Assembly: GCA_037139955.1 (NCBI GenBank)
Contig: JBAXFK010000001.1
Location: forward strand, 5,402 to 69,401
Origin: Rhodospirillales bacterium
GTDB lineage: Bacteria; Pseudomonadota; Alphaproteobacteria; Acetobacterales; Acetobacteraceae
Length of the DNA stretch: 64,000 nt
Direction: 5' to 3'
In this document: piece after piece, positions 18,638-64,000 of the stretch
Layout of the letters: every line of letters starts with the position of its first letter
Numbering within the stretch: position 1 is the first letter of the stretch
Program-made: the position numbers and the translations under genes
The notes under the pieces: generated by a model
Database searches by the model: none
The model's input: only the letters and a program-made list of their open reading frames with translations
Told to the model about the DNA's origin: nothing

Positions 18638-20286
18638 TGCGTATCCGGGTATTGAGTGCCGTTCTAACCATCCTGTGTCTCGCCGTCGCTTGCGCGCTGC
18701 CGAGCCGATCGGCGTGGGCAGATGCGACAAAAGATCGAATCGCCGCGATCCTGCAAGATACGCGGCAACGCGGTTGCGCCGCGCCGAACGACCTTCTCGC
18801 GACAGTGCTTTGCGCCGGAAAAATCCGCATCGGCGTGCGCGCGAACTACCCCGGATTCGGATACCTGGAAAACGGGCACTACAGCGGTTTCGAGATCGAT
18901 CTCGCGAACCGCATCGCCGAACGCCTGAACGTCGTCCCGCAACTGGCCACTGTTACCCCCGCGAATCGTATCTTGAAGGTGGTCGCGGGCGATGTCGATA
19001 TCGCCGTCGCCACCATGACCCATACGGTCACGCGCGACGAGCAGATACGTTTTGTGCGCCCCCATTACTTCGGAAGCCACACGTCGATTATGGGACCTAG
19101 GCGGCTCGCGCTCGACGGTCTTCAAGGGTTGGCGGGGCGATCCGTCTGCGTTCCCGTCGGTGCGGCTTCGAACCTTATCATGAGCAAAGCGGGTGCTCGG
19201 CTCATGCTTTACGACTCGCCGCAAGCACTGATCGATGCGCTCCGCTTCGGCACTTGCAGTCTCGCCGCCCACGACAATACGCTGTGGGCGGCATCGATCG
19301 CGGATGAACGCTTCGCGCAACGGTTCGAAGAAAAGGTAGCATTGACCGACTTCGGTTGGGGTATCGGATTACGCAAAGACAGAAGCAACGATATGGAGCA
19401 TCTGCTTAGCCTGATCGTCGTCGATTTGTACCGATCCGGAGAGATGACCGACCTGCTATCGAAATACACGCTGCCCCGAAGCTTCGTCGCCGCGCAGAAC
19501 GCTTTATGGTCGCAGCCGGCGTGTTCGACGCCAAGCGGCGATCCCGCAGAATCTTGTATGTTGGCAGCTTATTCCGATGTGGATGCCCCCACCTCGTTCG
19601 CATCGCAAGTGAAACACATCGAACTCTGGGCAAAGGAGCGACTGGGGCTAACAGTCAGTTTTCCCATGCTGACCGGCCAGGTGAATTTCGAGATGTTCAT
19701 CGAAGGTATCTTGAACACGCTTGTGTTGGTGGTAGGGGCGATATTCGCAACACTGTTTTTCGCTATTTTCTTCCAAGCCGGCATTCGCCGCGGTTCGATC
19801 GTATTTGGCGTCGCCGCAAAATTGGTCGCTGCTTTTTTTCGATCCAGTCCAGTCATCCTGCTGATGTTGCTTGGATATTATCTAGCGTCCTCGGTCACGA
19901 ATTATGGAACCGGCGTCGCGCTTTGCACAGCCGTGTTGGCGATCGGCCTGACAAATGGATGTTTCGCCGGTGTCGCGATCGCCGACGCGGCTGCCAGTAT
20001 GGACGACGGGACGGGCACCCAATCGCAGCCGCTTGTCGCCGTCCTACATCGCGCTCGGACACAAATTACCGCGTTCATGGTCAATGCCGCACGGGCCAGC
20101 GCCGTGGCCGCCTTCATCGGCACGCCGGAACTGCTCAACACGCTGAACGACGTTGCGTCGGTATCGTCGGAACGCACGACGACGTTCGCCATCCTGTTGC
20201 TTATCTACATGGCCATCATTTGGGCAGTCGCACGCTTGAGCGGATTGCTGGGTCTGCTCCTGACCCGGCAAGGAGCGGTATCATGA
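18634..20286 (+). CDS. fused solute-binding + permease protein, copy 2
   Basis: Identical translation to 15907-17559. Confidence 0.75.
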   Translation: MMRIRVLSAVLTILCLAVACALPSRSAWADATKDRIAAILQDTRQRGCAAPNDLLATVLCAGKIRIGVRANYPGFGYLENGHYSGFEIDLANRIAERLNVVPQLATVTPANRILKVVAGDVDIAVATMTHTVTRDEQIRFVRPHYFGSHTSIMGPRRLALDGLQGLAGRSVCVPVGAASNLIMSKAGARLMLYDSPQALIDALRFGTCSLAAHDNTLWAASIADERFAQRFEEKVALTDFGWGIGLRKDRSNDMEHLLSLIVVDLYRSGEMTDLLSKYTLPRSFVAAQNALWSQPACSTPSGDPAESCMLAAYSDVDAPTSFASQVKHIELWAKERLGLTVSFPMLTGQVNFEMFIEGILNTLVLVVGAIFATLFFAIFFQAGIRRGSIVFGVAAKLVAAFFRSSPVILLMLLGYYLASSVTNYGTGVALCTAVLAIGLTNGCFAGVAIADAAASMDDGTGTQSQPLVAVLHRARTQITAFMVNAARASAVAAFIGTPELLNTLNDVASVSSERTTTFAILLLIYMAIIWAVARLSGLLGLLLTRQGAVS

Positions 20287-20897
20287 GCTTCCTCCCGCCC
20301 AGTTTCATCGAAGATTTTTTACGGGGCTTCGTCACCAATCTCTGGGTCGGAGGGGCGTCCCTGCTACTTGGACTTGCGGTGGGCGGTTTGTTGGCTTGGC
20401 TACGGTTTGTCGGCGGCATATTCGGACGCATCGCCACCGCCGCAACGTCCCTGTTCAATGCCACCCCGACATTCGTTGCAATGTTCGTACTGTTGAACCT
20501 GCTGCCCCGCAGCATCGTCATCGCGGATTACTCGGCAACCGTTCCCATGGCGACTTTCGTCATCCTCTCGCTAGGGATATACGCCGCATCGAATATTTCC
20601 AATGGTCTATTGGATACTTTGCGATACCTCCGAGAGGGTTCGGTTCGCGCGGCAATGCTATTTATTCCGAATACTACGCGGGTGTTCGTTGTTCTCGTTC
20701 TCGCCTCGTCGACCGGCGCGGCAATCGGTGTGCCCGAAGCCGTCACGGTGACTTTGCGCCATGCCGAGCTTCTGCCGGATATCCAAAGCCGGATTATGCT
20801 GGTCGGTCTGGCGCTGGTCATGTTCATGTTGCTCGTACAAGCGCTCGAAGCCGTTGTCCGAACAGCGAGCGGGTGGCTCGTTCGCCGCCGGTCATAG
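20283..20897 (+). CDS. ABC-type permease-like membrane protein, copy 2
   Basis: Identical translation to 17556-18170. Confidence 0.7.
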   Translation: MSFLPPSFIEDFLRGFVTNLWVGGASLLLGLAVGGLLAWLRFVGGIFGRIATAATSLFNATPTFVAMFVLLNLLPRSIVIADYSATVPMATFVILSLGIYAASNISNGLLDTLRYLREGSVRAAMLFIPNTTRVFVVLVLASSTGAAIGVPEAVTVTLRHAELLPDIQSRIMLVGLALVMFMLLVQALEAVVRTASGWLVRRRS

Positions 20898-21074
20898 GCC
20901 GTCGGACCGCAGCGCAGCGCACGGATTTGCGAAAACATGGAATGAAAGGTGCGGCTACTCGATGTTGCTTCCCCGTGAAATCGTGCGGATAGCCAGCGCG
21001 CAGGCACCCAATTCGGCGCGCTTGCGATGCGGCAACGGGCCGTCCGGATCGCTCGGTTCCGAAGCAGCGCTGCC

Positions 21075-23000
21075 ATGAATTTGCTCCCATCCGGGTTCAT
21101 TGGCGATTTCCTATCCGGATTTATCGTCAACATCTGGATTGCCACGGCCGCGCTGTCGGTCGGGCTGACGGCTGGCGGAATCCTCGCTTGTTTAAAGCAC
21201 TGCGGAGGCGTCATGGGACGCTGCGCGGCGGCAGCGGCGTCCCTATGCGATACGGTACCGACATATATCGCGATGTTCGTGCTGCTGCACTTGCTCACCT
21301 CGTGGCAAACGGCGATGGCCTCCCCCACGACCTGTGCGATCCTAGCACTGGCAATTTTTAGCACCGCCAATAGTTACGGCACTCTGGTCAAAGCAATCCG
21401 TTTCTATCGGGACGGCGCTAACGGCGACGTACTGCGCTGCTTCCCCGATACCGCCCGACTATTCGTCGTGCTCCTGCTCGGCTCCACGTTCGGTGCGGCG
21501 ATAGGAGTCCCGGAGGCGGTTACCGCGACACTGCGATATGCCGACCTGCTGCCAGATGTGCATGGCAGGATCGTACTCGTGATCGTCGCGCTGGCACTGT
21601 TCATGCTGATCGTGCAGGCCATCGAAGCACTCCTTAGAATCGCCAATACGCTGTTGTTCGCGATCGTATTGCCATCCGTCGCGACCGAGGAGGCAGACGA
21701 CCCGGCCGGGCAAAATTGGCGTATCGATATCGAGTCCCACTTAAGGTTTATGACGAACCACCGGATGCTCTTCGGTATTGCCGTCGGGATCGGTATCGTA
21801 TTGATATTCGGCGCCCCCACACCGCCCCGCACGGTCGCCATCGCCACGGGGGCAACCGGCGGCTCGTGGTCCGCCGTGGCGGAGAAATACCGCCCGATCT
21901 TCGCGGCACAGGGGATCGAACTGCGATCCGTCCCGTTCGAGAACACAGCAAGCATTCCAACCGCGGTCAGCCTCGACGACAGTATTGTTTCGTTGGGCTT
22001 CGCGATCACCGAAATTCGTCCGAGCGACGCCGAAAATCTCCGAATTTTAGGGGCGATCGAATACCAGCCGCTATTCGTGTTTTATCGCAAGGCGCTGGGC
22101 AGGGACTGGACCGCCGAAAACCTGCGTGGCCGCACCATCGCCCTGCCGCCGACAGGCAGTGCCACAGTCGCATTGGCCGTTCCCGTGCTCAATGCCCTGG
22201 GCATCGACGCATCGAACACCAAGATATCCTACATGCCGCTGGCCGATCAGGTCGTCGCGATCCAAGCGGGTACGGTCGATGCAATCGCCGCCGTACTACG
22301 CGACGACAACCCGATCGTGCGCGAACTGATGCAGCGCGAAGACCTTCAACTCGTCGATTTCCCGCAGGCCTACGCGATTTCGCTCAAATTTCCGCAACTT
22401 CGACCGGTTAAGCTGGCGCGCGATGTTATCGATATGGCCAAGCATATTCCGGCGCGGGAAATTTCGTTGGTGGCCGGCACATCGTATGTCGTGGCAAACA
22501 AATCGCTCCATCCCGCGATCGCCTGGACGATGCTACGCGCCATGGCTGCGGTGCATGGACCGGCGACCCTGGTCAGCGCGGAGCGCGAATTCCCGGCGTT
22601 GCGTCATTCCAAGGTAGAGATCGACCCCCGCGCGGCGGAATATTATACGTCGGGCATACCTTGGGGATACCGCCAATTACCGCTGCAATGGGCGAGCACC
22701 GTCGAGTATTACTTGGCGATCGTTCTCCCATTGGCATTGTTGTTGCCGATCTATCGATGGTTAGGCCTTCCCGATATTCCCGATTTGCTCAATATGTTGC
22801 GTTTGACAATCTGGTACCGCGCGCTCCAGCAAATCGAAAGCGACATCGAGAAAAACGGCCAATGGACACGATCGCATCATACGACCTTCAATGTCATCCG
22901 ACAGTCCGTCCTACGACCGGACGGATCGTCGCGCGTGAAAGATCTTATCGCGAAGATGCAGCACAGTCGTACGCCGCCGCCGCCGGATAAGGCCGATTGA
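21075..23000 (+). CDS. fusion of a permease-like domain (paralog of the 204-aa permease) with a membrane-anchored TAXI-family (COG2358-like) solute-receptor domain
   Basis: The N-terminus MNLLPSGFIGDFLSGFIVNIW... parallels MSFLPPSFIEDFLRGFVTNLW... of the upstream gene. The middle region shows IATGATGGSWSAVAEKY and GRTIALPPTGSATV, which are TAXI-like motifs. The C-terminal TM segment plus the WYRALQQIE helix is typical of anchored TAXI proteins. Confidence 0.6.
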   Translation: MNLLPSGFIGDFLSGFIVNIWIATAALSVGLTAGGILACLKHCGGVMGRCAAAAASLCDTVPTYIAMFVLLHLLTSWQTAMASPTTCAILALAIFSTANSYGTLVKAIRFYRDGANGDVLRCFPDTARLFVVLLLGSTFGAAIGVPEAVTATLRYADLLPDVHGRIVLVIVALALFMLIVQAIEALLRIANTLLFAIVLPSVATEEADDPAGQNWRIDIESHLRFMTNHRMLFGIAVGIGIVLIFGAPTPPRTVAIATGATGGSWSAVAEKYRPIFAAQGIELRSVPFENTASIPTAVSLDDSIVSLGFAITEIRPSDAENLRILGAIEYQPLFVFYRKALGRDWTAENLRGRTIALPPTGSATVALAVPVLNALGIDASNTKISYMPLADQVVAIQAGTVDAIAAVLRDDNPIVRELMQREDLQLVDFPQAYAISLKFPQLRPVKLARDVIDMAKHIPAREISLVAGTSYVVANKSLHPAIAWTMLRAMAAVHGPATLVSAEREFPALRHSKVEIDPRAAEYYTSGIPWGYRQLPLQWASTVEYYLAIVLPLALLLPIYRWLGLPDIPDLLNMLRLTIWYRALQQIESDIEKNGQWTRSHHTTFNVIRQSVLRPDGSSRVKDLIAKMQHSRTPPPPDKAD

Positions 23001-23016
23001 GAGCCGCGCAACCGCT

Positions 23017-23658
23017 ATGCCCCCTGTCCCCACCCGAGCCTGGGTGCGTTTGCCGTCGGGTCACCGGCTGGATTTGCTCGACCCAACGCCGTTCGACTGG
23101 ACAGATGAGGACCTAGCCCTCGGCCTCGCGCGCACCTATCGCTGGGGCGGGCATTCCGCGTGGCCATTGCCGCTGTCGGTCGCACAGCACTCGCTGCTGG
23201 TGCTTGCCCTACGCCGTCAGTCTAGCCCCACCGGCCTGTCCGACGCCGCCGCGCGCCGCGAATTGCTGCACGATGCCGATGAGGGTTTGTTGGGTTTCGA
23301 CCCGATCTCACCGCTGAAACCCTTCCTCGGACCCGGCTATGCCGCCCTGGCCGCCCGGCTGCAATCGGCGATCGCGACCCGCTACACCGTCCCGCCTTGG
23401 ACGCCGGAGGACAAGAAGGCCCACAAGCGCGCCGACCGAATCGCGGCTGCATCCGAAGCTATCCATGTCGTGGGCTGGACGCGGGACGAAGTGCGCAAGA
23501 CCCTACGCATCGTCGACCGTCCGGTGGACACCGATCCTCTCGCGACCCGGTTATCCGTCGCACCGTGGGAGCCTTGGCCGGCCGCCCGCGCCGCCGAGGA
23601 ATTTTTGCGCATGCTCCGACGTCTCACCGCCGACCGGCCGCCCACCGCAAGCCCATGA
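23017..23658 (+). CDS. HD-domain phosphohydrolase (YfbR-like)
   Basis: 213-aa ORF with SVAQHSLLV ... LLHDADEG (the H...HD metal motif). Confidence 0.6.
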   Translation: MPPVPTRAWVRLPSGHRLDLLDPTPFDWTDEDLALGLARTYRWGGHSAWPLPLSVAQHSLLVLALRRQSSPTGLSDAAARRELLHDADEGLLGFDPISPLKPFLGPGYAALAARLQSAIATRYTVPPWTPEDKKAHKRADRIAAASEAIHVVGWTRDEVRKTLRIVDRPVDTDPLATRLSVAPWEPWPAARAAEEFLRMLRRLTADRPPTASP

Positions 23659-25883
23659 GCAAGCCCATGGGCAAGCCCGTGCGGATCGCCCTCGCACTGC
23701 TTCGCGCGGTCGCTGGCCTGCTATTGTTGGCGGTTGCCGGAATCGTATGGGCGCTGTGCGCCACCTTGCCATCCAGCCGCGAAACCGCGCGCATTCCCGG
23801 CCTATCCGCGCCGGTCGGCATTACGATCGACGCCGATGGCATACCCCGCATCCGAGCGGCGAACGAGCGCGATGGCGCAGCCGCGTTGGGGTTCGTGCAT
23901 GCGCGCGATCGCATGTTTCAAATGGAGCTGATGCGCCGCGCCGCTGCGGGCCGGCTGTCGGAACTGGCGGGTCCGTCGACGCTGTGGGTGGATCGAACGA
24001 TGCGCACCCTCGGTTTGGCGCGCGCCGCGCTCGCCGATTACGCGGCCCTGCCGGACGACACCAAGTCCGTGTTGGAAGCGTATGCCAACGGCGTGAACGC
24101 CTGGATCGCCGCGCACGGCCGCTTCGCCGCCCCCGAATTTCTGCCGCTCGGCGCCCCGGAGCCATGGCAGCCCTCGGATAGCCTGCTGTGGGCGAAAACC
24201 ATGGGGCTGTATTTGTCGGGCAATTGGCGAGCGGAATTGTCGCGACTGTCGCTGCAAGGACGGTTGCCGCAGGATAGGATCGACGAATTATGGCGATCCG
24301 ATCCACCCCGGCAGCGCGCCGACGGATCGACGGACCCGGACCTCGCCGCCGCCGCAGGCCGGCTGGCGGCGGTGCTGCCCACCTTCTCCGGCCCCTGGAC
24401 ACAGCCGGACTCCGCATCGAACGAGTGGGCCGTCGATGGCGCCCACAGCGCGACCGGGGCGCCGATCCTAGCTGGGGACCCGCACCTGGCATTCGGATTT
24501 CCCGGCGTCTGGTATCTCGCGCGGATCGACACGCCAAATTCGACGCTTGCCGGCGCCACCGCACCGGGGGTGCCGTTCCTGGTCATCGGGCGCAACCGAC
24601 ACATTGCCTGGACTTTCACCACCACCGACGCCGATGTGCAGGATATTTTCATCGAAGCGGCGGACGCGCCATCGACCCAGCGGGTGGAACGCATCGCCGT
24701 GCGCGGCCAGCCCGACGAGACCCTCATCGTTCGCGAAAGCCGGCATGGGCCGATCGTCGGCGATATCGTCGGTGTGCGGGACAAAACCCTCGCGGTGTCC
24801 ATGGCCAATCTACAGCCCGGCGATACCGCTGCCAGCGGCCTACTGGCGCTAAACCGAGCGGCCTCGGTGCGGGAGGCTGGGGCGACGGCAGCGGTTATCG
24901 CGTCCCCTGTGCAGAACCTGATGGTGGCGGATCGGGACACGATCGGGCAGTTCACCACCGGCCGCATTCCCATCCGCCAAGCCGGCGACGGATCGATGCC
25001 GATCCCAGGAAATGGCGCGTACGACTGGATCGGCTGGGCATCCGGCTCGGCATTGCCGCACTATGTCGCTCCAGCCGAGGGGCGGCTGGTCAACGCCAAC
25101 GAGCGTATCGCGCCACCCGATTTTCCGGTCTTCCTCGGACGAGATTGGTACACCGACTGGCGCGCCCGCCGGATCGTCACGCTGCTGGATGCGCTACCGA
25201 AGCCCTCGCCGACCGATTTCGCCCGGATGCAGAGCGATGCGGACAGCAGTTTCGCCGTGCAAATCCTACCTATTCTGCGCGCGGCGGCGCCCGACGCGAA
25301 AATCTTCGACGGCTGGAACGGTACGATGACGCTGGATGCGCCGCAGCCGCTGGTGTTCAACACGTGGCTGCGCGCATTTCACCGGCTGATCCTGCAACGG
25401 GCCGGGCTCGACCGACACGTCGGCGGGCCGATGGCAGATTTCGTGGGCTTCGTTCTCTCGCCCGCCGGGGCGCATTGGTGCGGCGGCGACTGCGCGCCCG
25501 CGATCCGGCAAGCGCTGGAAACCGCGACAGACCGCCGTCCGTGGGGGGAAGCCCATCCCGCCGTTTTCGCCCACCCGACGTTCCGCAGCATACCGCTGTT
25601 AGGCGACCTCACCACCCAATCCATCCCCAGCCCCGGCGACGACACCACCGTCGGACGCGGATCCCCGAACGCCGATATGCAAAGCGTGCATGGGGCGAGC
25701 TACCGGGGAGTGTACGATCTTGCCGACCTAGACCGGAGCCTGTTCATGCTCGCGCCCGGGCAATCCGGAAACCCGCTAGCCGCCCATGCCGGAGATTTGC
25801 TGCGGCGCTGGCGCGACGGTGCTACGCTGACGCTCGGTCGCGATCCGGCGACCGTCGCGGAAAGCATCGAGCTGATCCCATGA
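23655..25883 (+). CDS. penicillin acylase / acyl-homoserine-lactone acylase family Ntn-hydrolase
   Basis: ATG at 23655 (ATGA overlap with the HD gene). It has an N-terminal TM/signal segment and the GPWTQPDSASNEWAV motif with the Ser nucleophile (SNxW). 742 aa. Confidence 0.85.
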   Translation: MSKPMGKPVRIALALLRAVAGLLLLAVAGIVWALCATLPSSRETARIPGLSAPVGITIDADGIPRIRAANERDGAAALGFVHARDRMFQMELMRRAAAGRLSELAGPSTLWVDRTMRTLGLARAALADYAALPDDTKSVLEAYANGVNAWIAAHGRFAAPEFLPLGAPEPWQPSDSLLWAKTMGLYLSGNWRAELSRLSLQGRLPQDRIDELWRSDPPRQRADGSTDPDLAAAAGRLAAVLPTFSGPWTQPDSASNEWAVDGAHSATGAPILAGDPHLAFGFPGVWYLARIDTPNSTLAGATAPGVPFLVIGRNRHIAWTFTTTDADVQDIFIEAADAPSTQRVERIAVRGQPDETLIVRESRHGPIVGDIVGVRDKTLAVSMANLQPGDTAASGLLALNRAASVREAGATAAVIASPVQNLMVADRDTIGQFTTGRIPIRQAGDGSMPIPGNGAYDWIGWASGSALPHYVAPAEGRLVNANERIAPPDFPVFLGRDWYTDWRARRIVTLLDALPKPSPTDFARMQSDADSSFAVQILPILRAAAPDAKIFDGWNGTMTLDAPQPLVFNTWLRAFHRLILQRAGLDRHVGGPMADFVGFVLSPAGAHWCGGDCAPAIRQALETATDRRPWGEAHPAVFAHPTFRSIPLLGDLTTQSIPSPGDDTTVGRGSPNADMQSVHGASYRGVYDLADLDRSLFMLAPGQSGNPLAAHAGDLLRRWRDGATLTLGRDPATVAESIELIP

Positions 25884-26326
25884 CCTCCGATCGAGACGAT
25901 TATCTTACGGCCGGCGTTATGTTCGGCCGTTGCGTGGCATTTCTCGTCGATGCCATCGCGATTGCCGTGCTGTGGGTGCTGCTTGCCTGGGTGCTGGGGC
26001 TGTTCGGCATTCTCACTCTCGGCCTGGGCTTTGGGTTGTGGCCGCTGCTGGCTTGGCTGCCTTTCGCTTACCATTTGCTCTCGCTCTATGGGTCCAACCA
26101 CGCCACGCTCGGTCAGCGCACCATGGGGCTGACGGTGCGGCGCAACGACGATCTGGGACCGCCGACCTTGGTACAGGCCGCCGTCTCGACCGTGTTGTTC
26201 TACATTTCGCTGGGCTTCTCCGGCGTACCGTTCGTCATCGCGCTGTTCACGATCCGCCATCGGACACCGCACGACATGCTCAGCGGCCTCGTGGTGGTAC
26301 GACGCAAGGCACTCTGGATCGCGTGA
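25880..26326 (+). CDS. RDD family membrane protein
   Basis: 148 aa, with ATGA overlap with the acylase. It has three hydrophobic segments and the RDD-type pattern (DRDDY..., ...GQRTMGLTV..., HDMLSGLVVV). Confidence 0.6.
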   Translation: MTSDRDDYLTAGVMFGRCVAFLVDAIAIAVLWVLLAWVLGLFGILTLGLGFGLWPLLAWLPFAYHLLSLYGSNHATLGQRTMGLTVRRNDDLGPPTLVQAAVSTVLFYISLGFSGVPFVIALFTIRHRTPHDMLSGLVVVRRKALWIA

Positions 26327-26395
26327 TCGATTAACCGCGAACTGTACCTGTCTTCGCGCCGCAAATCGGCGTAAGGTAGCGTCCGAACAAACTAG

Positions 26396-27055
26396 GTGGA
26401 CAAATTCGTGGCTGCGATTCCGATCACAACGGCGATGGTGAACGCGGCCCTCGGGGCGACAGCGGCACAACCTCTGCCCGAGGACGCGATCACGTTCGAA
26501 ACCGGCGATCTGGTCGTCTACCCCGCCCACGGCGTCGGCAAAGTCGATCGCGTGGGCATGGAGGAGATGGCCGGCCACAAGCTGCACCTGATCCAAATCT
26601 CCTTCGAGGAAAACCGCATGACCCTGCGCGTTCCCGTCGCGCAAGCACGCGCCACCGGGCTGCGCAAGATCGGCACGCCGGCGGCCATGAGCGAGGTGCT
26701 GACCATCCTGTCCGGCCGATCCCGCGTCAGCCGCATGATCTGGGCCAAGCGCGGCCAGGAATACCTGGCGAAAATCAATTCCGGCGACCTCAAGCAACTG
26801 GCCGAAGTCGTGCGCGACCTCCGCGGCACCGGCGACGGATCGGGCACCAGCTATTCGCAGCGCAACCTGTTCGAACTGGGCATCGACCGCCTGGCCGGTG
26901 AGTTCGCTGCCGCATCCGGCATCGATAAACCCGCCGCGATGGAACGCCTAACCGCCACGCTACAAACCGCCCGCTCGGCCGATACATCCCGCGTAGAAAA
27001 AGCCGCTGCCTCGGCAGCAGCAGCGGCGGCCGCCGAGGCCGACGCGGCAGCTTGA
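26396..27055 (+). CDS. carD: CarD/CdnL family RNA-polymerase-binding transcription factor with Ala-rich tail
   Basis: Shows the CarD signature FETGDLVVYPAHGVGKVDRV...RMTLRVPV...SRMIWAKRGQEY. The GTG start at 26396 is uncertain. Confidence 0.85.
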   Translation: MDKFVAAIPITTAMVNAALGATAAQPLPEDAITFETGDLVVYPAHGVGKVDRVGMEEMAGHKLHLIQISFEENRMTLRVPVAQARATGLRKIGTPAAMSEVLTILSGRSRVSRMIWAKRGQEYLAKINSGDLKQLAEVVRDLRGTGDGSGTSYSQRNLFELGIDRLAGEFAAASGIDKPAAMERLTATLQTARSADTSRVEKAAASAAAAAAAEADAAA

Positions 27056-27084
27056 TACCGGAGGCTTGGAAGGATCGAGCACCG

Positions 27085-29700: not shown

Positions 29701-29733
29701 AGAGGCAGCGAGCAGGGCGGCGATACGAATGGG

Positions 29734-32124: not shown

Positions 32125-32190
32125 GGTTGCAGCTTCCAATGGGTTGCCCAATGGTCGGACGGGTTTGGGTTTCAGGCAAGATAGCCCCGG

Positions 32191-32640: not shown

Positions 32641-32655
32641 ATTCCCGATCCGAAA

Positions 32656-33285: not shown

Positions 33286-33288
33286 GGC

Positions 33289-37078: not shown

Positions 37079-37089
37079 CGGGTCTGCGT

Positions 37090-44917: not shown

Positions 44918-44922
44918 CATGC

Positions 44923-45899: not shown

Positions 45900-45902
45900 T
45901 TC

Positions 45903-49003: not shown

Positions 49004-49245
49004 CAGAATGCCGTGAAATAGACCGGGAACCCAAAGATTTAAAAGGATATAATTCGTCGCCGCGATCATCTGGATCGGCAATGCGTAAGGCCGCATAGGT
49101 GGAATAAGCCCGGTGTCGATCATCACGGACAGCGTCAGCGTGTCCGGCCTCCATCTCGGCGGGGGTAACGACTTCTAGGAATCCCATGCGATAACCTCCG
49201 GCAAGACAATAACCCGGCAAGACAATAACACAGAGGACGTCCCCC

Positions 49246-50942: not shown

Positions 50943-50945
50943 GCC

Positions 50946-51575: not shown

Positions 51576-51590
51576 TTTCGGATCGGGAAT

Positions 51591-52040: not shown

Positions 52041-52106
52041 CCGGGGCTATCTTGCCTGAAACCCAAACCCGTCCGACCATTGGGCAACCCATTGGAAGCT
52101 GCAACC

Positions 52107-54497: not shown

Positions 54498-54530
54498 CCC
54501 ATTCGTATCGCCGCCCTGCTCGCTGCCTCT

Positions 54531-57146
54531 TTGGTACTGATGGCCCTTGCGCCGGAGTTCTCTCCGCCGCCGGACGCTCCCATGACCGTCGTCGCGGTGC
54601 CGAACGTCGATAGTCCGTCGTTCCCCCCGCGCCGTGTTTACACCCGGTCCGATTTGCGAGCTTTGTTCACCAAAGCAACCGATGGGGATGCCGACGCGGC
54701 CGCCGAACTTGGGCAGATGTACGCACGCGGCGGCACACTGTCGGTCAACACCGACGAAGCTTTTCGCTGGCTCACGCGCGCCATGGACCTTGGCTCCGAT
54801 GCTGCGCGACGCGAGTTCGGTCTGCTGTTACTGCGCCTGCCCGGCGCCCAGCGCGATCCATCCCGTGCAGCGCCGCTGTTACGACGTGCTGCCGAGGCGG
54901 GGGATGCCGAGGCACAATCCTCCCTGGGCATGCTCTACGCCTGGGGCGAGGGGGTGGAGCGCGACCCCGACCAAGCCATCGAATGGGTGCGCAAAGCCGC
55001 AGACCAGAACGACCGTTGGGCTTTGGCCAATATGGGCACCTTGCTGGAATTCGGCGTCGGCACGCCGAAAGACCCGGCGGAGGCGGCCATTTGGTACCGC
55101 CGCGCGGCAGACCTCGGGCTCGCGGCTGGGGAAGTGCGGTTGGCGCTGCTGTATCAGCGCGGCTCCGGCGTGCCGAAGGAGCCAGCGCAAAGCGTCGCTC
55201 TGCTTCTCAGCGCCGCGCAGCGAGAGGACCCGATCGCCCAACGCCTGCTCGGCGTGGCCTACCGCGATGGCTGGGGCGTTGCGCCCAATCCCGATGAATC
55301 CGTCGCATGGCTGAAACGCGCCGCCGAGCGCTTCGACCCAGAAGCCTTGGCGATGCTGGCGGATGCGTATCAGCAGGGCCGCGGCGTCGCGCGCGATCGA
55401 ATCGAAGCCTGGAACTGGCTGCTGCGCGCCGGGGATGCGGGGCACATGTTGGCCGCCGTGTCCCTCGGCCAAGCCTATTACAACGGCTTTCCCGGCCCCG
55501 GCCGTAACCACGACGAAGCCGCCCGCTGGTTCGAAAAAGCGCTCAGTCGCGCGCGACTCGAATCCTGGCTGCGGATGGACGAGCGCGGCACCTACCGCAC
55601 CCAGCAACTGGCCGTCGCTCGCTATGCCCTGGGCATGTTGCTGCTGAACGGCGACGGCATTGGCAAAGACCAATCCCGTGCGGTCGCATTGTTCGAGGAA
55701 GCGGCGGCGCAAGACAACGGCCTCGCGATCGGGCAACTCGGGCGTCTATATCGTTTCGGAATCTGGGTCGCGCAGGACGATAGCAAAGCCGTGGCGTTGC
55801 TGCGGCAGGCCGTGGAACTCAAGAACGGTGCGGCGGCCTCGTTGCTCGGCGACGGGTATTTACTCGGTTGGGCCGGCAAGAAAGACGTAGCGGAGGCTGT
55901 GCGTTGGTATCGCGCGGCGGCGGGACTGCACGAAGCCACCGGCTGGCTGGGTTTGGCGCGTGCCTACGAATCCGGGCAGGGTCTGTCGCAAGACGGGGTG
56001 GAGGCCACGGTTTGGTATCGGCTCGCCGCTAACGCCGGGCTGCTCGATGCACAGGTGCGCATGGGCGACATTGCCCATCTCGGCTTGTACGGGCACGTCC
56101 GCGACGATGCCCAGGCCGCTGGCTGGTACGGCCCTGCCGCGAATTTCGGGCACCCAGGGGCGCAATATATGATGGGCGTCCTCGCCGAGGCGCGGCCCGA
56201 CGGCGGCGCCGAAGCTGAATCCTGGTACCGCAAAGCATCCGATAAAGCTTGGTCGCCGGCCTCCAAACGGCTGGGCGACGCGTATCGCGATGGGGCGCTT
56301 GGGCTGTCTAGGGATGACGGGCAGGCCTTTGTCTTCTATAGCCGCGCGGCGGATGCCGGCATGCCGGCCGCGCTGGTCGAACTGGCACGTTTCACGGAAA
56401 ACGGTCGCGGGACGGCCCGCGACCCCAACGCGGCGTTGGCCCTTTGGCGCCGAGCGGCCGATAAGGGGTTGGCGGTGGCCCAGTATCGTATGGGTTACGC
56501 CGCACAAACCGGGGAGGCCGATGTGCCGCACGACGATGCGGAGGCGGTGCGCTGGTACCGGTTGGCTGCGGCGCAGGAATACCCGGACGCGCAAATCAAC
56601 CTCGGCGCGATGCTGCTAGAAGGTCTCGGCGGCGCGCAAGACGGGGCCGAAGCGATCGTTTGGTACACGCGTGCCGCCACCCACGGTCATCCAACCGCAG
56701 AATATATGCTCGGCTCCATCCTTTGGGACGGCAAAGCGGGTCAGAAACAAGACCAGACGGAGGCGGTGCGGCATTTTCGCAAAGCAGCGGAAAGCGGCAA
56801 CGCCGCCGCGCAATACATGATGTCGGTGGCCTACCGCCTGGGCCAAGGTGTGCCGGCCGATGAGACGGATATGCTGGCTTGGCTGCGTAAAGCCGCCGAG
56901 CAGGGGGAGGGCGCGGCGCTCAATTCGTTGGGCTATTCGATCCTGTCCGGTGTCGATGGCACCTACGATTTCGTCGAGGCCGCGTGCTGGCTGATCCTGG
57001 CGGTGGAGCGCATCCCGGCCGAGGCCGAGAAGCGTCGTGCCCAGGTCAATCTAGAGAACGCCTTGGCGCAATTGAACGACGAAGAAAAGTCTCAGGCCGA
57101 GGCCCGCGCAGCCGTTTGGCGTGCGCGGTTCGTCGGCAGGCCGTAG
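54531..57146 (+). CDS. Sel1-repeat protein, 871 aa (mirror copy)
   Basis: Mirror of 27085-29700. Confidence 0.8.
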   Translation: MVLMALAPEFSPPPDAPMTVVAVPNVDSPSFPPRRVYTRSDLRALFTKATDGDADAAAELGQMYARGGTLSVNTDEAFRWLTRAMDLGSDAARREFGLLLLRLPGAQRDPSRAAPLLRRAAEAGDAEAQSSLGMLYAWGEGVERDPDQAIEWVRKAADQNDRWALANMGTLLEFGVGTPKDPAEAAIWYRRAADLGLAAGEVRLALLYQRGSGVPKEPAQSVALLLSAAQREDPIAQRLLGVAYRDGWGVAPNPDESVAWLKRAAERFDPEALAMLADAYQQGRGVARDRIEAWNWLLRAGDAGHMLAAVSLGQAYYNGFPGPGRNHDEAARWFEKALSRARLESWLRMDERGTYRTQQLAVARYALGMLLLNGDGIGKDQSRAVALFEEAAAQDNGLAIGQLGRLYRFGIWVAQDDSKAVALLRQAVELKNGAAASLLGDGYLLGWAGKKDVAEAVRWYRAAAGLHEATGWLGLARAYESGQGLSQDGVEATVWYRLAANAGLLDAQVRMGDIAHLGLYGHVRDDAQAAGWYGPAANFGHPGAQYMMGVLAEARPDGGAEAESWYRKASDKAWSPASKRLGDAYRDGALGLSRDDGQAFVFYSRAADAGMPAALVELARFTENGRGTARDPNAALALWRRAADKGLAVAQYRMGYAAQTGEADVPHDDAEAVRWYRLAAAQEYPDAQINLGAMLLEGLGGAQDGAEAIVWYTRAATHGHPTAEYMLGSILWDGKAGQKQDQTEAVRHFRKAAESGNAAAQYMMSVAYRLGQGVPADETDMLAWLRKAAEQGEGAALNSLGYSILSGVDGTYDFVEAACWLILAVERIPAEAEKRRAQVNLENALAQLNDEEKSQAEARAAVWRARFVGRP

Positions 57147-57175
57147 CGGTGCTCGATCCTTCCAAGCCTCCGGTA

Positions 57176-57835
57176 TCAAGCTGCCGCGTCGGCCTCGGCG
57201 GCCGCCGCTGCTGCTGCCGAGGCAGCGGCTTTTTCTACGCGGGATGTATCGGCCGAGCGGGCGGTTTGTAGCGTGGCGGTTAGGCGTTCCATCGCGGCGG
57301 GTTTATCGATGCCGGATGCGGCAGCGAACTCACCGGCCAGGCGGTCGATGCCCAGTTCGAACAGGTTGCGCTGCGAATAGCTGGTGCCCGATCCGTCGCC
57401 GGTGCCGCGGAGGTCGCGCACGACTTCGGCCAGTTGCTTGAGGTCGCCGGAATTGATTTTCGCCAGGTATTCCTGGCCGCGCTTGGCCCAGATCATGCGG
57501 CTGACGCGGGATCGGCCGGACAGGATGGTCAGCACCTCGCTCATGGCCGCCGGCGTGCCGATCTTGCGCAGCCCGGTGGCGCGTGCTTGCGCGACGGGAA
57601 CGCGCAGGGTCATGCGGTTTTCCTCGAAGGAGATTTGGATCAGGTGCAGCTTGTGGCCGGCCATCTCCTCCATGCCCACGCGATCGACTTTGCCGACGCC
57701 GTGGGCGGGGTAGACGACCAGATCGCCGGTTTCGAACGTGATCGCGTCCTCGGGCAGAGGTTGTGCCGCTGTCGCCCCGAGGGCCGCGTTCACCATCGCC
57801 GTTGTGATCGGAATCGCAGCCACGAATTTGTCCAC
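57176..57835 (-). CDS. carD: CarD/CdnL family transcription factor (mirror copy)
   Basis: Mirror of 26396-27055. Confidence 0.8.
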   Translation of the reverse strand: MDKFVAAIPITTAMVNAALGATAAQPLPEDAITFETGDLVVYPAHGVGKVDRVGMEEMAGHKLHLIQISFEENRMTLRVPVAQARATGLRKIGTPAAMSEVLTILSGRSRVSRMIWAKRGQEYLAKINSGDLKQLAEVVRDLRGTGDGSGTSYSQRNLFELGIDRLAGEFAAASGIDKPAAMERLTATLQTARSADTSRVEKAAASAAAAAAAEADAAA

Positions 57836-57904
57836 CTAGTTTGTTCGGACGCTACCTTACGCCGATTTGCGGCGCGAAGACAGGTACAGTTCGCGGTTAA
57901 TCGA

Positions 57905-58351
57905 TCACGCGATCCAGAGTGCCTTGCGTCGTACCACCACGAGGCCGCTGAGCATGTCGTGCGGTGTCCGATGGCGGATCGTGAACAGCGCGATGACGAA
58001 CGGTACGCCGGAGAAGCCCAGCGAAATGTAGAACAACACGGTCGAGACGGCGGCCTGTACCAAGGTCGGCGGTCCCAGATCGTCGTTGCGCCGCACCGTC
58101 AGCCCCATGGTGCGCTGACCGAGCGTGGCGTGGTTGGACCCATAGAGCGAGAGCAAATGGTAAGCGAAAGGCAGCCAAGCCAGCAGCGGCCACAACCCAA
58201 AGCCCAGGCCGAGAGTGAGAATGCCGAACAGCCCCAGCACCCAGGCAAGCAGCACCCACAGCACGGCAATCGCGATGGCATCGACGAGAAATGCCACGCA
58301 ACGGCCGAACATAACGCCGGCCGTAAGATAATCGTCTCGATCGGAGGTCAT
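57905..58351 (-). CDS. RDD family membrane protein (mirror copy)
   Basis: Mirror of 25880-26326. Confidence 0.55.
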   Translation of the reverse strand: MTSDRDDYLTAGVMFGRCVAFLVDAIAIAVLWVLLAWVLGLFGILTLGLGFGLWPLLAWLPFAYHLLSLYGSNHATLGQRTMGLTVRRNDDLGPPTLVQAAVSTVLFYISLGFSGVPFVIALFTIRHRTPHDMLSGLVVVRRKALWIA

Positions 58352-60576
58352 GGGATCAGCTCGATGCTTTCCGCGACGGTCGCCGGATCGCGACCGAGCG
58401 TCAGCGTAGCACCGTCGCGCCAGCGCCGCAGCAAATCTCCGGCATGGGCGGCTAGCGGGTTTCCGGATTGCCCGGGCGCGAGCATGAACAGGCTCCGGTC
58501 TAGGTCGGCAAGATCGTACACTCCCCGGTAGCTCGCCCCATGCACGCTTTGCATATCGGCGTTCGGGGATCCGCGTCCGACGGTGGTGTCGTCGCCGGGG
58601 CTGGGGATGGATTGGGTGGTGAGGTCGCCTAACAGCGGTATGCTGCGGAACGTCGGGTGGGCGAAAACGGCGGGATGGGCTTCCCCCCACGGACGGCGGT
58701 CTGTCGCGGTTTCCAGCGCTTGCCGGATCGCGGGCGCGCAGTCGCCGCCGCACCAATGCGCCCCGGCGGGCGAGAGAACGAAGCCCACGAAATCTGCCAT
58801 CGGCCCGCCGACGTGTCGGTCGAGCCCGGCCCGTTGCAGGATCAGCCGGTGAAATGCGCGCAGCCACGTGTTGAACACCAGCGGCTGCGGCGCATCCAGC
58901 GTCATCGTACCGTTCCAGCCGTCGAAGATTTTCGCGTCGGGCGCCGCCGCGCGCAGAATAGGTAGGATTTGCACGGCGAAACTGCTGTCCGCATCGCTCT
59001 GCATCCGGGCGAAATCGGTCGGCGAGGGCTTCGGTAGCGCATCCAGCAGCGTGACGATCCGGCGGGCGCGCCAGTCGGTGTACCAATCTCGTCCGAGGAA
59101 GACCGGAAAATCGGGTGGCGCGATACGCTCGTTGGCGTTGACCAGCCGCCCCTCGGCTGGAGCGACATAGTGCGGCAATGCCGAGCCGGATGCCCAGCCG
59201 ATCCAGTCGTACGCGCCATTTCCTGGGATCGGCATCGATCCGTCGCCGGCTTGGCGGATGGGAATGCGGCCGGTGGTGAACTGCCCGATCGTGTCCCGAT
59301 CCGCCACCATCAGGTTCTGCACAGGGGACGCGATAACCGCTGCCGTCGCCCCAGCCTCCCGCACCGAGGCCGCTCGGTTTAGCGCCAGTAGGCCGCTGGC
59401 AGCGGTATCGCCGGGCTGTAGATTGGCCATGGACACCGCGAGGGTTTTGTCCCGCACACCGACGATATCGCCGACGATCGGCCCATGCCGGCTTTCGCGA
59501 ACGATGAGGGTCTCGTCGGGCTGGCCGCGCACGGCGATGCGTTCCACCCGCTGGGTCGATGGCGCGTCCGCCGCTTCGATGAAAATATCCTGCACATCGG
59601 CGTCGGTGGTGGTGAAAGTCCAGGCAATGTGTCGGTTGCGCCCGATGACCAGGAACGGCACCCCCGGTGCGGTGGCGCCGGCAAGCGTCGAATTTGGCGT
59701 GTCGATCCGCGCGAGATACCAGACGCCGGGAAATCCGAATGCCAGGTGCGGGTCCCCAGCTAGGATCGGCGCCCCGGTCGCGCTGTGGGCGCCATCGACG
59801 GCCCACTCGTTCGATGCGGAGTCCGGCTGTGTCCAGGGGCCGGAGAAGGTGGGCAGCACCGCCGCCAGCCGGCCTGCGGCGGCGGCGAGGTCCGGGTCCG
59901 TCGATCCGTCGGCGCGCTGCCGGGGTGGATCGGATCGCCATAATTCGTCGATCCTATCCTGCGGCAACCGTCCTTGCAGCGACAGTCGCGACAATTCCGC
60001 TCGCCAATTGCCCGACAAATACAGCCCCATGGTTTTCGCCCACAGCAGGCTATCCGAGGGCTGCCATGGCTCCGGGGCGCCGAGCGGCAGAAATTCGGGG
60101 GCGGCGAAGCGGCCGTGCGCGGCGATCCAGGCGTTCACGCCGTTGGCATACGCTTCCAACACGGACTTGGTGTCGTCCGGCAGGGCCGCGTAATCGGCGA
60201 GCGCGGCGCGCGCCAAACCGAGGGTGCGCATCGTTCGATCCACCCACAGCGTCGACGGACCCGCCAGTTCCGACAGCCGGCCCGCAGCGGCGCGGCGCAT
60301 CAGCTCCATTTGAAACATGCGATCGCGCGCATGCACGAACCCCAACGCGGCTGCGCCATCGCGCTCGTTCGCCGCTCGGATGCGGGGTATGCCATCGGCG
60401 TCGATCGTAATGCCGACCGGCGCGGATAGGCCGGGAATGCGCGCGGTTTCGCGGCTGGATGGCAAGGTGGCGCACAGCGCCCATACGATTCCGGCAACCG
60501 CCAACAATAGCAGGCCAGCGACCGCGCGAAGCAGTGCGAGGGCGATCCGCACGGGCTTGCCCATGGGCTTGCTCAT
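58348..60576 (-). CDS. penicillin/AHL acylase family Ntn-hydrolase (mirror copy)
   Basis: Mirror of 23655-25883. Confidence 0.8.
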   Translation of the reverse strand: MSKPMGKPVRIALALLRAVAGLLLLAVAGIVWALCATLPSSRETARIPGLSAPVGITIDADGIPRIRAANERDGAAALGFVHARDRMFQMELMRRAAAGRLSELAGPSTLWVDRTMRTLGLARAALADYAALPDDTKSVLEAYANGVNAWIAAHGRFAAPEFLPLGAPEPWQPSDSLLWAKTMGLYLSGNWRAELSRLSLQGRLPQDRIDELWRSDPPRQRADGSTDPDLAAAAGRLAAVLPTFSGPWTQPDSASNEWAVDGAHSATGAPILAGDPHLAFGFPGVWYLARIDTPNSTLAGATAPGVPFLVIGRNRHIAWTFTTTDADVQDIFIEAADAPSTQRVERIAVRGQPDETLIVRESRHGPIVGDIVGVRDKTLAVSMANLQPGDTAASGLLALNRAASVREAGATAAVIASPVQNLMVADRDTIGQFTTGRIPIRQAGDGSMPIPGNGAYDWIGWASGSALPHYVAPAEGRLVNANERIAPPDFPVFLGRDWYTDWRARRIVTLLDALPKPSPTDFARMQSDADSSFAVQILPILRAAAPDAKIFDGWNGTMTLDAPQPLVFNTWLRAFHRLILQRAGLDRHVGGPMADFVGFVLSPAGAHWCGGDCAPAIRQALETATDRRPWGEAHPAVFAHPTFRSIPLLGDLTTQSIPSPGDDTTVGRGSPNADMQSVHGASYRGVYDLADLDRSLFMLAPGQSGNPLAAHAGDLLRRWRDGATLTLGRDPATVAESIELIP

Positions 60577-61214
60577 GGGCTTGCGGTGGGCGGCCGGTCG
60601 GCGGTGAGACGTCGGAGCATGCGCAAAAATTCCTCGGCGGCGCGGGCGGCCGGCCAAGGCTCCCACGGTGCGACGGATAACCGGGTCGCGAGAGGATCGG
60701 TGTCCACCGGACGGTCGACGATGCGTAGGGTCTTGCGCACTTCGTCCCGCGTCCAGCCCACGACATGGATAGCTTCGGATGCAGCCGCGATTCGGTCGGC
60801 GCGCTTGTGGGCCTTCTTGTCCTCCGGCGTCCAAGGCGGGACGGTGTAGCGGGTCGCGATCGCCGATTGCAGCCGGGCGGCCAGGGCGGCATAGCCGGGT
60901 CCGAGGAAGGGTTTCAGCGGTGAGATCGGGTCGAAACCCAACAAACCCTCATCGGCATCGTGCAGCAATTCGCGGCGCGCGGCGGCGTCGGACAGGCCGG
61001 TGGGGCTAGACTGACGGCGTAGGGCAAGCACCAGCAGCGAGTGCTGTGCGACCGACAGCGGCAATGGCCACGCGGAATGCCCGCCCCAGCGATAGGTGCG
61101 CGCGAGGCCGAGGGCTAGGTCCTCATCTGTCCAGTCGAACGGCGTTGGGTCGAGCAAATCCAGCCGGTGACCCGACGGCAAACGCACCCAGGCTCGGGTG
61201 GGGACAGGGGGCAT
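60573..61214 (-). CDS. HD-domain phosphohydrolase (mirror copy)
   Basis: Mirror of 23017-23658. Confidence 0.55.
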   Translation of the reverse strand: MPPVPTRAWVRLPSGHRLDLLDPTPFDWTDEDLALGLARTYRWGGHSAWPLPLSVAQHSLLVLALRRQSSPTGLSDAAARRELLHDADEGLLGFDPISPLKPFLGPGYAALAARLQSAIATRYTVPPWTPEDKKAHKRADRIAAASEAIHVVGWTRDEVRKTLRIVDRPVDTDPLATRLSVAPWEPWPAARAAEEFLRMLRRLTADRPPTASP

Positions 61215-61230
61215 AGCGGTTGCGCGGCTC

Positions 61231-63156
61231 TCAATCGGCCTTATCCGGCGGCGGCGGCGTACGACTGTGCTGCATCTTCGCGATAAGATCTTTCACGCGC
61301 GACGATCCGTCCGGTCGTAGGACGGACTGTCGGATGACATTGAAGGTCGTATGATGCGATCGTGTCCATTGGCCGTTTTTCTCGATGTCGCTTTCGATTT
61401 GCTGGAGCGCGCGGTACCAGATTGTCAAACGCAACATATTGAGCAAATCGGGAATATCGGGAAGGCCTAACCATCGATAGATCGGCAACAACAATGCCAA
61501 TGGGAGAACGATCGCCAAGTAATACTCGACGGTGCTCGCCCATTGCAGCGGTAATTGGCGGTATCCCCAAGGTATGCCCGACGTATAATATTCCGCCGCG
61601 CGGGGGTCGATCTCTACCTTGGAATGACGCAACGCCGGGAATTCGCGCTCCGCGCTGACCAGGGTCGCCGGTCCATGCACCGCAGCCATGGCGCGTAGCA
61701 TCGTCCAGGCGATCGCGGGATGGAGCGATTTGTTTGCCACGACATACGATGTGCCGGCCACCAACGAAATTTCCCGCGCCGGAATATGCTTGGCCATATC
61801 GATAACATCGCGCGCCAGCTTAACCGGTCGAAGTTGCGGAAATTTGAGCGAAATCGCGTAGGCCTGCGGGAAATCGACGAGTTGAAGGTCTTCGCGCTGC
61901 ATCAGTTCGCGCACGATCGGGTTGTCGTCGCGTAGTACGGCGGCGATTGCATCGACCGTACCCGCTTGGATCGCGACGACCTGATCGGCCAGCGGCATGT
62001 AGGATATCTTGGTGTTCGATGCGTCGATGCCCAGGGCATTGAGCACGGGAACGGCCAATGCGACTGTGGCACTGCCTGTCGGCGGCAGGGCGATGGTGCG
62101 GCCACGCAGGTTTTCGGCGGTCCAGTCCCTGCCCAGCGCCTTGCGATAAAACACGAATAGCGGCTGGTATTCGATCGCCCCTAAAATTCGGAGATTTTCG
62201 GCGTCGCTCGGACGAATTTCGGTGATCGCGAAGCCCAACGAAACAATACTGTCGTCGAGGCTGACCGCGGTTGGAATGCTTGCTGTGTTCTCGAACGGGA
62301 CGGATCGCAGTTCGATCCCCTGTGCCGCGAAGATCGGGCGGTATTTCTCCGCCACGGCGGACCACGAGCCGCCGGTTGCCCCCGTGGCGATGGCGACCGT
62401 GCGGGGCGGTGTGGGGGCGCCGAATATCAATACGATACCGATCCCGACGGCAATACCGAAGAGCATCCGGTGGTTCGTCATAAACCTTAAGTGGGACTCG
62501 ATATCGATACGCCAATTTTGCCCGGCCGGGTCGTCTGCCTCCTCGGTCGCGACGGATGGCAATACGATCGCGAACAACAGCGTATTGGCGATTCTAAGGA
62601 GTGCTTCGATGGCCTGCACGATCAGCATGAACAGTGCCAGCGCGACGATCACGAGTACGATCCTGCCATGCACATCTGGCAGCAGGTCGGCATATCGCAG
62701 TGTCGCGGTAACCGCCTCCGGGACTCCTATCGCCGCACCGAACGTGGAGCCGAGCAGGAGCACGACGAATAGTCGGGCGGTATCGGGGAAGCAGCGCAGT
62801 ACGTCGCCGTTAGCGCCGTCCCGATAGAAACGGATTGCTTTGACCAGAGTGCCGTAACTATTGGCGGTGCTAAAAATTGCCAGTGCTAGGATCGCACAGG
62901 TCGTGGGGGAGGCCATCGCCGTTTGCCACGAGGTGAGCAAGTGCAGCAGCACGAACATCGCGATATATGTCGGTACCGTATCGCATAGGGACGCCGCTGC
63001 CGCCGCGCAGCGTCCCATGACGCCTCCGCAGTGCTTTAAACAAGCGAGGATTCCGCCAGCCGTCAGCCCGACCGACAGCGCGGCCGTGGCAATCCAGATG
63101 TTGACGATAAATCCGGATAGGAAATCGCCAATGAACCCGGATGGGAGCAAATTCAT
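61231..63156 (-). CDS. permease-like + TAXI-like fusion protein (mirror copy)
   Basis: Mirror of 21075-23000. Confidence 0.55.
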   Translation of the reverse strand: MNLLPSGFIGDFLSGFIVNIWIATAALSVGLTAGGILACLKHCGGVMGRCAAAAASLCDTVPTYIAMFVLLHLLTSWQTAMASPTTCAILALAIFSTANSYGTLVKAIRFYRDGANGDVLRCFPDTARLFVVLLLGSTFGAAIGVPEAVTATLRYADLLPDVHGRIVLVIVALALFMLIVQAIEALLRIANTLLFAIVLPSVATEEADDPAGQNWRIDIESHLRFMTNHRMLFGIAVGIGIVLIFGAPTPPRTVAIATGATGGSWSAVAEKYRPIFAAQGIELRSVPFENTASIPTAVSLDDSIVSLGFAITEIRPSDAENLRILGAIEYQPLFVFYRKALGRDWTAENLRGRTIALPPTGSATVALAVPVLNALGIDASNTKISYMPLADQVVAIQAGTVDAIAAVLRDDNPIVRELMQREDLQLVDFPQAYAISLKFPQLRPVKLARDVIDMAKHIPAREISLVAGTSYVVANKSLHPAIAWTMLRAMAAVHGPATLVSAEREFPALRHSKVEIDPRAAEYYTSGIPWGYRQLPLQWASTVEYYLAIVLPLALLLPIYRWLGLPDIPDLLNMLRLTIWYRALQQIESDIEKNGQWTRSHHTTFNVIRQSVLRPDGSSRVKDLIAKMQHSRTPPPPDKAD

Positions 63157-63333
63157 GGCAGCGCTGCTTCGGAACCGAGCGATCCGGACGGCCCGTTGCC
63201 GCATCGCAAGCGCGCCGAATTGGGTGCCTGCGCGCTGGCTATCCGCACGATTTCACGGGGAAGCAACATCGAGTAGCCGCACCTTTCATTCCATGTTTTC
63301 GCAAATCCGTGCGCTGCGCTGCGGTCCGACGGC

Positions 63334-63948
63334 CTATGACCGGCGGCGAACGAGCCACCCGCTCGCTGTTCGGACAACGGCTTCGAGCGCTTGTACGAGC
63401 AACATGAACATGACCAGCGCCAGACCGACCAGCATAATCCGGCTTTGGATATCCGGCAGAAGCTCGGCATGGCGCAAAGTCACCGTGACGGCTTCGGGCA
63501 CACCGATTGCCGCGCCGGTCGACGAGGCGAGAACGAGAACAACGAACACCCGCGTAGTATTCGGAATAAATAGCATTGCCGCGCGAACCGAACCCTCTCG
63601 GAGGTATCGCAAAGTATCCAATAGACCATTGGAAATATTCGATGCGGCGTATATCCCTAGCGAGAGGATGACGAAAGTCGCCATGGGAACGGTTGCCGAG
63701 TAATCCGCGATGACGATGCTGCGGGGCAGCAGGTTCAACAGTACGAACATTGCAACGAATGTCGGGGTGGCATTGAACAGGGACGTTGCGGCGGTGGCGA
63801 TGCGTCCGAATATGCCGCCGACAAACCGTAGCCAAGCCAACAAACCGCCCACCGCAAGTCCAAGTAGCAGGGACGCCCCTCCGACCCAGAGATTGGTGAC
63901 GAAGCCCCGTAAAAAATCTTCGATGAAACTGGGCGGGAGGAAGCTCAT
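63334..63948 (-). CDS. ABC-type permease-like membrane protein (mirror copy)
   Basis: Mirror of 20283-20897. Listed in the ORF track with identical translation. Confidence 0.65.
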   Translation of the reverse strand: MSFLPPSFIEDFLRGFVTNLWVGGASLLLGLAVGGLLAWLRFVGGIFGRIATAATSLFNATPTFVAMFVLLNLLPRSIVIADYSATVPMATFVILSLGIYAASNISNGLLDTLRYLREGSVRAAMLFIPNTTRVFVVLVLASSTGAAIGVPEAVTVTLRHAELLPDIQSRIMLVGLALVMFMLLVQALEAVVRTASGWLVRRRS

Positions 63949-64000
63949 GATACCGCTCCTTGCCGGGTCAGGAGCAGACCCAGCAATCCGCTCAAGCGTG
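63945..64000 (-). CDS. 3' end of the fused SBP + permease gene (mirror copy, 5' part beyond the window)
   Basis: Mirror of 20231-20286. Confidence 0.6.
   Translation of the reverse strand, partial: RLSGLLGLLLTRQGAVS

Follow-up and report, generated by a model that had tools for sequence, protein, structure and literature searches.

Does the contig deposited as JBAXFK010000001.1 for a Rhodospirillales bacterium of the Acetobacteraceae (assembly GCA_037139955.1) carry a giant natural palindrome, or was the mirror that it contains made on the way from DNA to contig? We analyzed a 64-kb stretch of this contig (64,000 nucleotides, contig positions 5,402 to 69,401, hereafter the window), the 3' end of which is occupied by a perfect inverted repeat of at least 43.8 kb. 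Its axis of symmetry lies inside the gene for a fused CydD/CydC-type ATP-binding cassette (ABC) exporter. We put the probability that this mirror is a technical fold-back, and not a feature of the organism's genome, at roughly 0.85. A fold-back chimera appears to be the best fit to the sequence evidence when this is combined with the published rates of such artefacts. An earlier inspection of the letters (the sequence-only reading) had also preferred a fold-back chimera carried into an assembly, and that preference is supported here on the same two grounds.

The geometry of the mirror is exact. In a base-by-base test around the axis between 42115 and 42116, all 21,885 position pairs formed by 20231-42115 and 42116-64000 were complementary, with 0 mismatches, and the whole window contains 0 ambiguous bases. 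Read directly, the sequence runs up to the axis as ...CACCGGTAACCACGG and leaves it as CCGTGGTTACCGGTG... (in a longer version, ...GGCACCGGTAACCACGG and CCGTGGTTACCGGTGCC...), with a spacer of zero and an offset of 0. A perfect inverted repeat with arms of 21.9 kb cannot be attained by chance, and no further inverted repeats of at least 40 nt were found in 1-42115. The reverse complement of 20231-20270 is 63961-64000, and the right arm is thus bounded by the window edge only. The sequence-only reading had described identical arms with zero spacer, a right arm limited only by the window edge, and mirrored open reading frames (ORFs), and all of this is borne out: the ORF pairs 27085-29700(-)/54531-57146(+) and 21027-23000(+)/61231-63204(-) translate identically, and the comparison of the window with its own reverse complement, which that reading had proposed, returned 100% identity over both arms. 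The two halves coincide exactly at the breakpoint, on opposite strands of the same locus, which fits the Breakinator definition of a fold-back (within 200 bp). The mirror belongs to the deposited contig and was not produced by the cutting of the window, because the 396-amino-acid ORF that spans the axis is identical to a public protein (P0001), which forms a singleton cluster and comes from one 95,032-bp contig.

The position of the axis within the exporter gene can be read by comparison with relatives. The axis falls after codon 329 of an ORF that starts at 41128, of which residues 22-280 are matched by Pfam ABC_membrane, and which matches positions 2-315 of 529 in the NCBIfam CydD profile. 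The cut point lies between the first transmembrane domain (TMD) and the first nucleotide-binding domain (NBD). Where the exporter is intact in relatives, it has 1,183-1,186 amino acids and the architecture TMD-NBD-TMD-NBD, and a gene for the same HpcH/HpaI aldolase precedes it in every relative fetched. The fragment in the window is 90% identical to residues 1-324 of a 1,186-amino-acid orthologue (L003:7109-10669). When this orthologue was compared with the whole window by tblastn, residues 1-324 were recovered twice, at 41128-42099(+) and 43103-42132(-), and residues 325-1186, which comprise both NBDs and the second TMD, were absent from the whole 64-kb window. The orthologous gene runs for about 860 codons further in relatives and none of that stretch is in the window. 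The sequence-only reading had held that the axis splits an ABC exporter gene and that the true gene should reach an NBD, and the orthologues confirm it on both counts. In the species-representative genome collection, relatives of the axis gene reach at most about 90% protein identity; the closest exporter relative stands at 88% protein identity (P0002/L090) and the closest HpcH relative at 92% identity (P0121/L081), and these two settle the architecture of the exporter gene.

The DNA alignments place the turn precisely. The closest relatives of the axis region show about 80-84% DNA identity, and their alignments end 12-38 bp before the axis. More specifically, eight relatives align on the + strand as far as 42077-42103, and from 42128-42154 they align again via the same segment of their own sequence, reversed. 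The sequence that lies downstream of the locus in these eight relatives has no match anywhere in the window. The window protein reads ...APSGNKAPVTT and then passes into antisense-derived residues without likeness to the NBD start of the orthologues; in all intact orthologues, an eight-residue variable linker is followed by PSIAFEDVGFAYPGG..., where the NBD starts. Because of these alignments, the missing residues 325-1186 and the lost NBD start, the turning point is an arbitrary position within a conserved gene, about eight codons before the first NBD.

As an observation on the exporter gene in its own right, the gene of about 1,186 amino acids is split or shortened in several short-read relatives and intact in L003, L082, and L083. 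The split or shortened ORFs are found in L004 (9959-13548, 422+774 amino acids), L081 (2048-4138, 696 amino acids), L085 (2082-5524, 752+396 amino acids), and L090 (2166-4231, 407+282 amino acids). They could be assembly frameshift errors, or could reflect real decay or splitting of the fused gene.

How might such a mirror have entered the contig? Most probably, the contig was built with a false join at 42115, where a segment of an Acetobacteraceae chromosome passes from one of its strands into the complementary one. The likeliest source would be a long read in which template and complement were read as one molecule, either because a nanopore template/complement read was left unsplit or because a hairpin adapter went unrecognized in a PacBio read. 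Less likely, the join would stem from whole-genome amplification, as an inverted chimera, or from a strand switch made by the assembler. A junction of this kind in the assembly graph would allow the path to return along the same locus in the opposite orientation, and both arms would then be built and polished from shared reads, which would explain the 100% identity, the missing spacer, and the turn at an arbitrary point inside a gene. We infer both the sequencing platform and the support of the junction by one or a few reads. Fold-backs make up about 0.55-0.6% of Oxford Nanopore Technologies (ONT) genomic-DNA reads, with one half per strand at the same locus; more than 11 bp lie between the halves in fewer than half of these reads, and common trimming tools miss them (PMC12870357). 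False duplications that are backed by no long read have been reported in long-read metagenome assemblies, including those made with metaMDBG and metaFlye (10.1101/2025.04.22.649783). Palindromic chimeras also arise in whole-genome amplification, according to the Pacasus report (10.1101/173872).

A second perfect repeat, a tandem duplication of a 2,727-bp unit (Table 1), bears on the reliability of the contig, which thus holds two large divergence-free repeats within 27 kb. The exact match at period 2727 spans 2,727 bases, the junction is blunt and free of microhomology, and the last 871 bp of the tandem duplication fall within the mirrored zone. In the unit, the 3' end of a methyltransferase-like gene is followed by a solute-binding protein/permease fusion gene, a gene for a small permease, and nine codons from the start of the gene after it. 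It is single-copy in the ENA contig L088 (about 95% nucleotide identity) and in the syntenic contig L089, which is suggestive, not decisive. The tandem duplication is either a false assembler duplication or a very recent real one. Taken together, the two perfect repeats would fit an unreliable assembly better than two independent and very recent rearrangements, because the relatives lack the tandem repeat and the gene truncated by the mirror is intact in relatives. As a perfect 2.7-kb tandem repeat has been resolved into exactly two copies, this sequence further suggests that the assembly was based on long reads.

Several points weigh against a technical origin. The attribution is drawn from the assembled sequence, and the sequence that a very recent real fold-back duplication would be expected to leave is exactly the one observed. 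The length of the right arm is a lower bound, as the window edge cuts the mirror and the end of the arm lies outside the window. The contigs L088 and L089, in which the 2,727-bp unit is single-copy, are short-read contigs and as such prone to collapse perfect tandem repeats. Finally, no adapter remnant was found at the junction, an absence common to most published fold-back reads as well; ONT, SMRTbell, and Illumina adapter sequences gave only chance matches of 8-11 bases across the window in blastn-short searches.

The mirror may instead be a real and very recent fold-back inverted duplication, present in some or all cells of the population, although we consider this unlikely. By the proposed route, a double-strand break inside the ABC exporter gene would be resected, its end would fold back as a hairpin cap, and replication would convert the cap into an inverted duplication centered on the break. 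Perfect arms and an axis at an arbitrary intragenic site are exactly what this hairpin-cap pathway predicts, and the nearby perfect tandem duplication could point to an actively rearranging or amplifying lineage. Large inverted chromosome duplications of this type have been observed in a bacterium, Escherichia coli, but the products there arose only where SbcCD and RecA were lacking, and at a 246-bp palindrome that was already present (PMC3315005). The center of the mirror lacks the asymmetric loop that would normally be expected from a hairpin primed at a short natural inverted repeat; any fold-back creates a dyad at the axis by itself, so a prior natural dyad is indistinguishable there. Long perfect palindromes in bacteria are attacked by SbcCD, and from established knowledge of this nuclease and of palindrome inviability, instability is to be expected of a palindrome that has no spacer and spans at least 43.8 kb. 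Moreover, a real palindrome would need to dominate a natural population in order to reach the consensus contig, and technical fold-backs are far commoner. A more specific claim is marginally less probable again: a hairpin-capped break in a cydDC-like gene was replicated into a spacer-less inverted duplication (at least 43.8 kb), which is borne by the whole or a large share of a wild Acetobacteraceae population and was tolerated up to the time of sequencing. If true, either SbcCD-type surveillance of palindromes would have to be weak or absent, or a chromosome arm with a hairpin end would have formed anew, and the locus would be one of the rare cases in nature of a giant perfect palindrome that persists in a bacterial chromosome.

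Two further explanations fare worse. An identical spacer-less mirror would result if, without any chimeric molecule, a short natural palindrome or a dead end of low coverage made the de Bruijn or string-graph path of a short-read or hybrid assembler continue on its own reverse complement, and the self-complementary 6-bp word ACCGGT is indeed located 6 bp from the axis. However, a hairpin turn in a de Bruijn graph requires a natural palindrome of about k-1 bases, which is implausible in coding sequence colinear with orthologues, and the resolution of the 2.7-kb tandem repeat into two copies is beyond short-read graphs and makes a long-read assembly likelier; we therefore regard such a graph-level artefact as very improbable. 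Slightly lower still we place the possibility that long reads ran round the covalently closed hairpin telomere at the end of a linear replicon, as in Borrelia chromosomes and plasmids, the nanopore assemblies of which show perfect inverse duplications (5-18 kb) at termini that are real hairpin telomeres. A hairpin tip would give a perfect axis without a spacer, but the axis in the window is not a natural replicon end, as it breaks a conserved gene of about 1,186 amino acids at codon 329. Orthologous coding homology extends to within 12-38 bp of the axis and therefore leaves no room for a resolvase target site, and no telomere-like sequence was found at the axis. A telomere resolvase is encoded by none of the 40 ORFs screened in 1-42115 (all scanned with Pfam and ten of them also with NCBIfam), and the locus belongs to the core chromosome. 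To our knowledge, hairpin-ended replicons have not been described in Acetobacteraceae. The hairpin telomere that the sequence-only reading had listed as an alternative is thus weakened by conserved coding sequence that continues up to 12 bp from the axis.

Table 1. Coordinates of the two perfect repeats and of the exporter ORFs at the axis (window positions).
Feature	Coordinates	Strand	Remarks
Tandem duplication, two copies of 2,727 bp	15648..21101	+	15648-18374 = 18375-21101
Left arm	20231..42115	+	Joined to unique flank 1-20230, hence the copy anchored in native context
Right arm, mirror copy	42116..64000	-	0 mismatches in 21,885 pairs; ends at window end
Probable fold-back junction (axis)	42115..42116	.	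No spacer; no adapter remnant at or near it
Native 5' part (codons 1-329) of fused CydD/CydC-type ABC exporter	41128..42114	+	Pfam, NCBIfam, and orthologue match
Mirror copy of truncated exporter fragment	42117..43103	-	tblastn of L003 orthologue: 43103-42132, score equal to left copy
Fusion ORF of 396 amino acids, probably artefactual	41128..42318	+	329 native codons plus 67 codons of antisense read-through
Twin of 396-amino-acid fusion ORF	41913..43103	-	Mirror of 41128-42318

The locus is chromosomal and lies in a core-chromosome context, because the left part of the window carries rimP-nusA-ylxR and a tRNA-Tyr gene at 7502-7587, the sole RNA gene detected. The same part also holds a run of ordinary metabolic and transport genes, and the G+C content of the DNA is 57-68%. 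Genes of the left arm encode penicillin amidase, CarD, a Sel1-repeat protein, gamma-glutamyltranspeptidase, PPK2, an RraA-like protein, enoyl-CoA hydratase, and HpcH aldolase. For the genes examined, the best relatives belong to metagenome-assembled Acetobacteraceae from lakes, peat, and soil. The ENA contig L088 shows 95% nucleotide identity over the 15-23 kb region, and L089 is syntenic with the window from about 6.2 kb to about 27065. No structured RNA or tRNA was detected at or near the axis. The metagenome and viral contig collections contained no exact match to the 26 bases that end at the axis, and two proteins of the window, looked up by exact sequence, returned no record. Among the 40 ORFs screened in 1-42115, there was no telomere resolvase, protelomerase, transposase, integrase, or recombinase, and a mobile-element or telomere origin of the window was rejected on the basis of this lack of domains. 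A plasmid origin was also rejected: a PLSDB search with the 8 kb adjoining the axis gave weak matches (65%-71% identity), to ABC transporter genes.

Three other places in the window deserve mention. The transporter cluster at 15000-23000 has a G+C content of 0.575-0.60, compared with 0.62-0.68 in its flanks, and an unusual composition, with a 550-amino-acid fusion of a solute-binding and a membrane domain, a 204-amino-acid permease-like protein, and a 657-amino-acid protein in which a TAXI/NMT1-like binding domain follows a permease-like N-terminus. L088 and L089 both keep the cluster, and it may have been acquired horizontally. In the left arm, a 171-bp direct repeat (34909-35079, identical to 37090-37260 and diverging afterwards) flanks a 2-kb segment of lower G+C content (0.56; region 34909-37274) with two ORFs, 34957-35592 and 35982-36614, that have no Pfam or NCBIfam match. 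The repeat takes in the 5' end and the upstream region of the RraA-like gene, and the arrangement may represent a small insertion or a local duplication. Lastly, a 623-amino-acid ORF at 127-1998 (+) has no family match. It stands downstream of ylxR/nusA, where the opposite strand would be expected to carry infB, with a reading frame that would extend past the left edge of the window. The 623-amino-acid ORF is probably spurious and owed to antisense reading of high-GC DNA.

Judged from its sequence, the mirror is in all likelihood no true feature of the genome and likely to be of low biological interest, and it matters as a question of data quality. It makes about 22 kb, and possibly more beyond the window, seem to hold twice as many genes as it does, and it hides the true downstream part of the CydDC-type exporter gene. 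It has created two copies of a fake 396-amino-acid protein, one that is already present in a public protein collection as P0001. For genome bins that hold this contig, estimates of duplication and contamination would be inflated. Given the mirror and the 2.7-kb tandem duplication, the structure of the 95-kb contig is not to be relied on beyond about 15.6 kb of the window. We recommend that users discard the window from about 42116 on, view the tandem repeat at 15648-21101 with suspicion, and take the 396-amino-acid fusion protein to be spurious.

Several known systems resemble this mirror in part. The nearest real biological counterpart is found in E. coli sbcCD recA mutants, in which a large inverted chromosomal duplication forms via a hairpin-capped end (Darmon et al. 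2010, PMC3315005); that process needs a 246-bp interrupted palindrome together with the loss of SbcCD and RecA, whereas the center of the present mirror is uninterrupted. Hairpin telomeres, such as those resolved by Borrelia ResT, Agrobacterium TelA, and TelN of phage N15, likewise appear as perfect terminal inverse duplications in long-read assemblies, but the axis described here lies inside a conserved gene of the core chromosome, with neither a telomere motif nor, in the ORFs tested, a resolvase. Chimeras from whole-genome (multiple displacement) amplification usually join at a microhomology slightly off the turning point and retain an offset or spacer, in contrast to the zero offset of the present mirror. 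They are similar in that strand switching yields artificial palindromic long reads, as set out in the Pacasus report (10.1101/173872). The false duplications described in metagenome assemblies (10.1101/2025.04.22.649783) are also large perfect contig repeats unsupported by the natural arrangement in relatives; those are mainly direct repeats and short, fully repetitive contigs, and here an inverted mirror of 43.8 kb stands on a 95-kb chromosomal contig. Fold-back artefact reads (Heinz, Meyerson & Li 2026, PMC12870357) differ in that they are reads and not a finished contig, and in that the arms of the present mirror extend over at least 21.9 kb and are base-perfect, which would require consensus building or polishing from shared reads. 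With these reads the mirror shares a near-perfect palindrome, little or no spacer, and an arbitrary genomic position.

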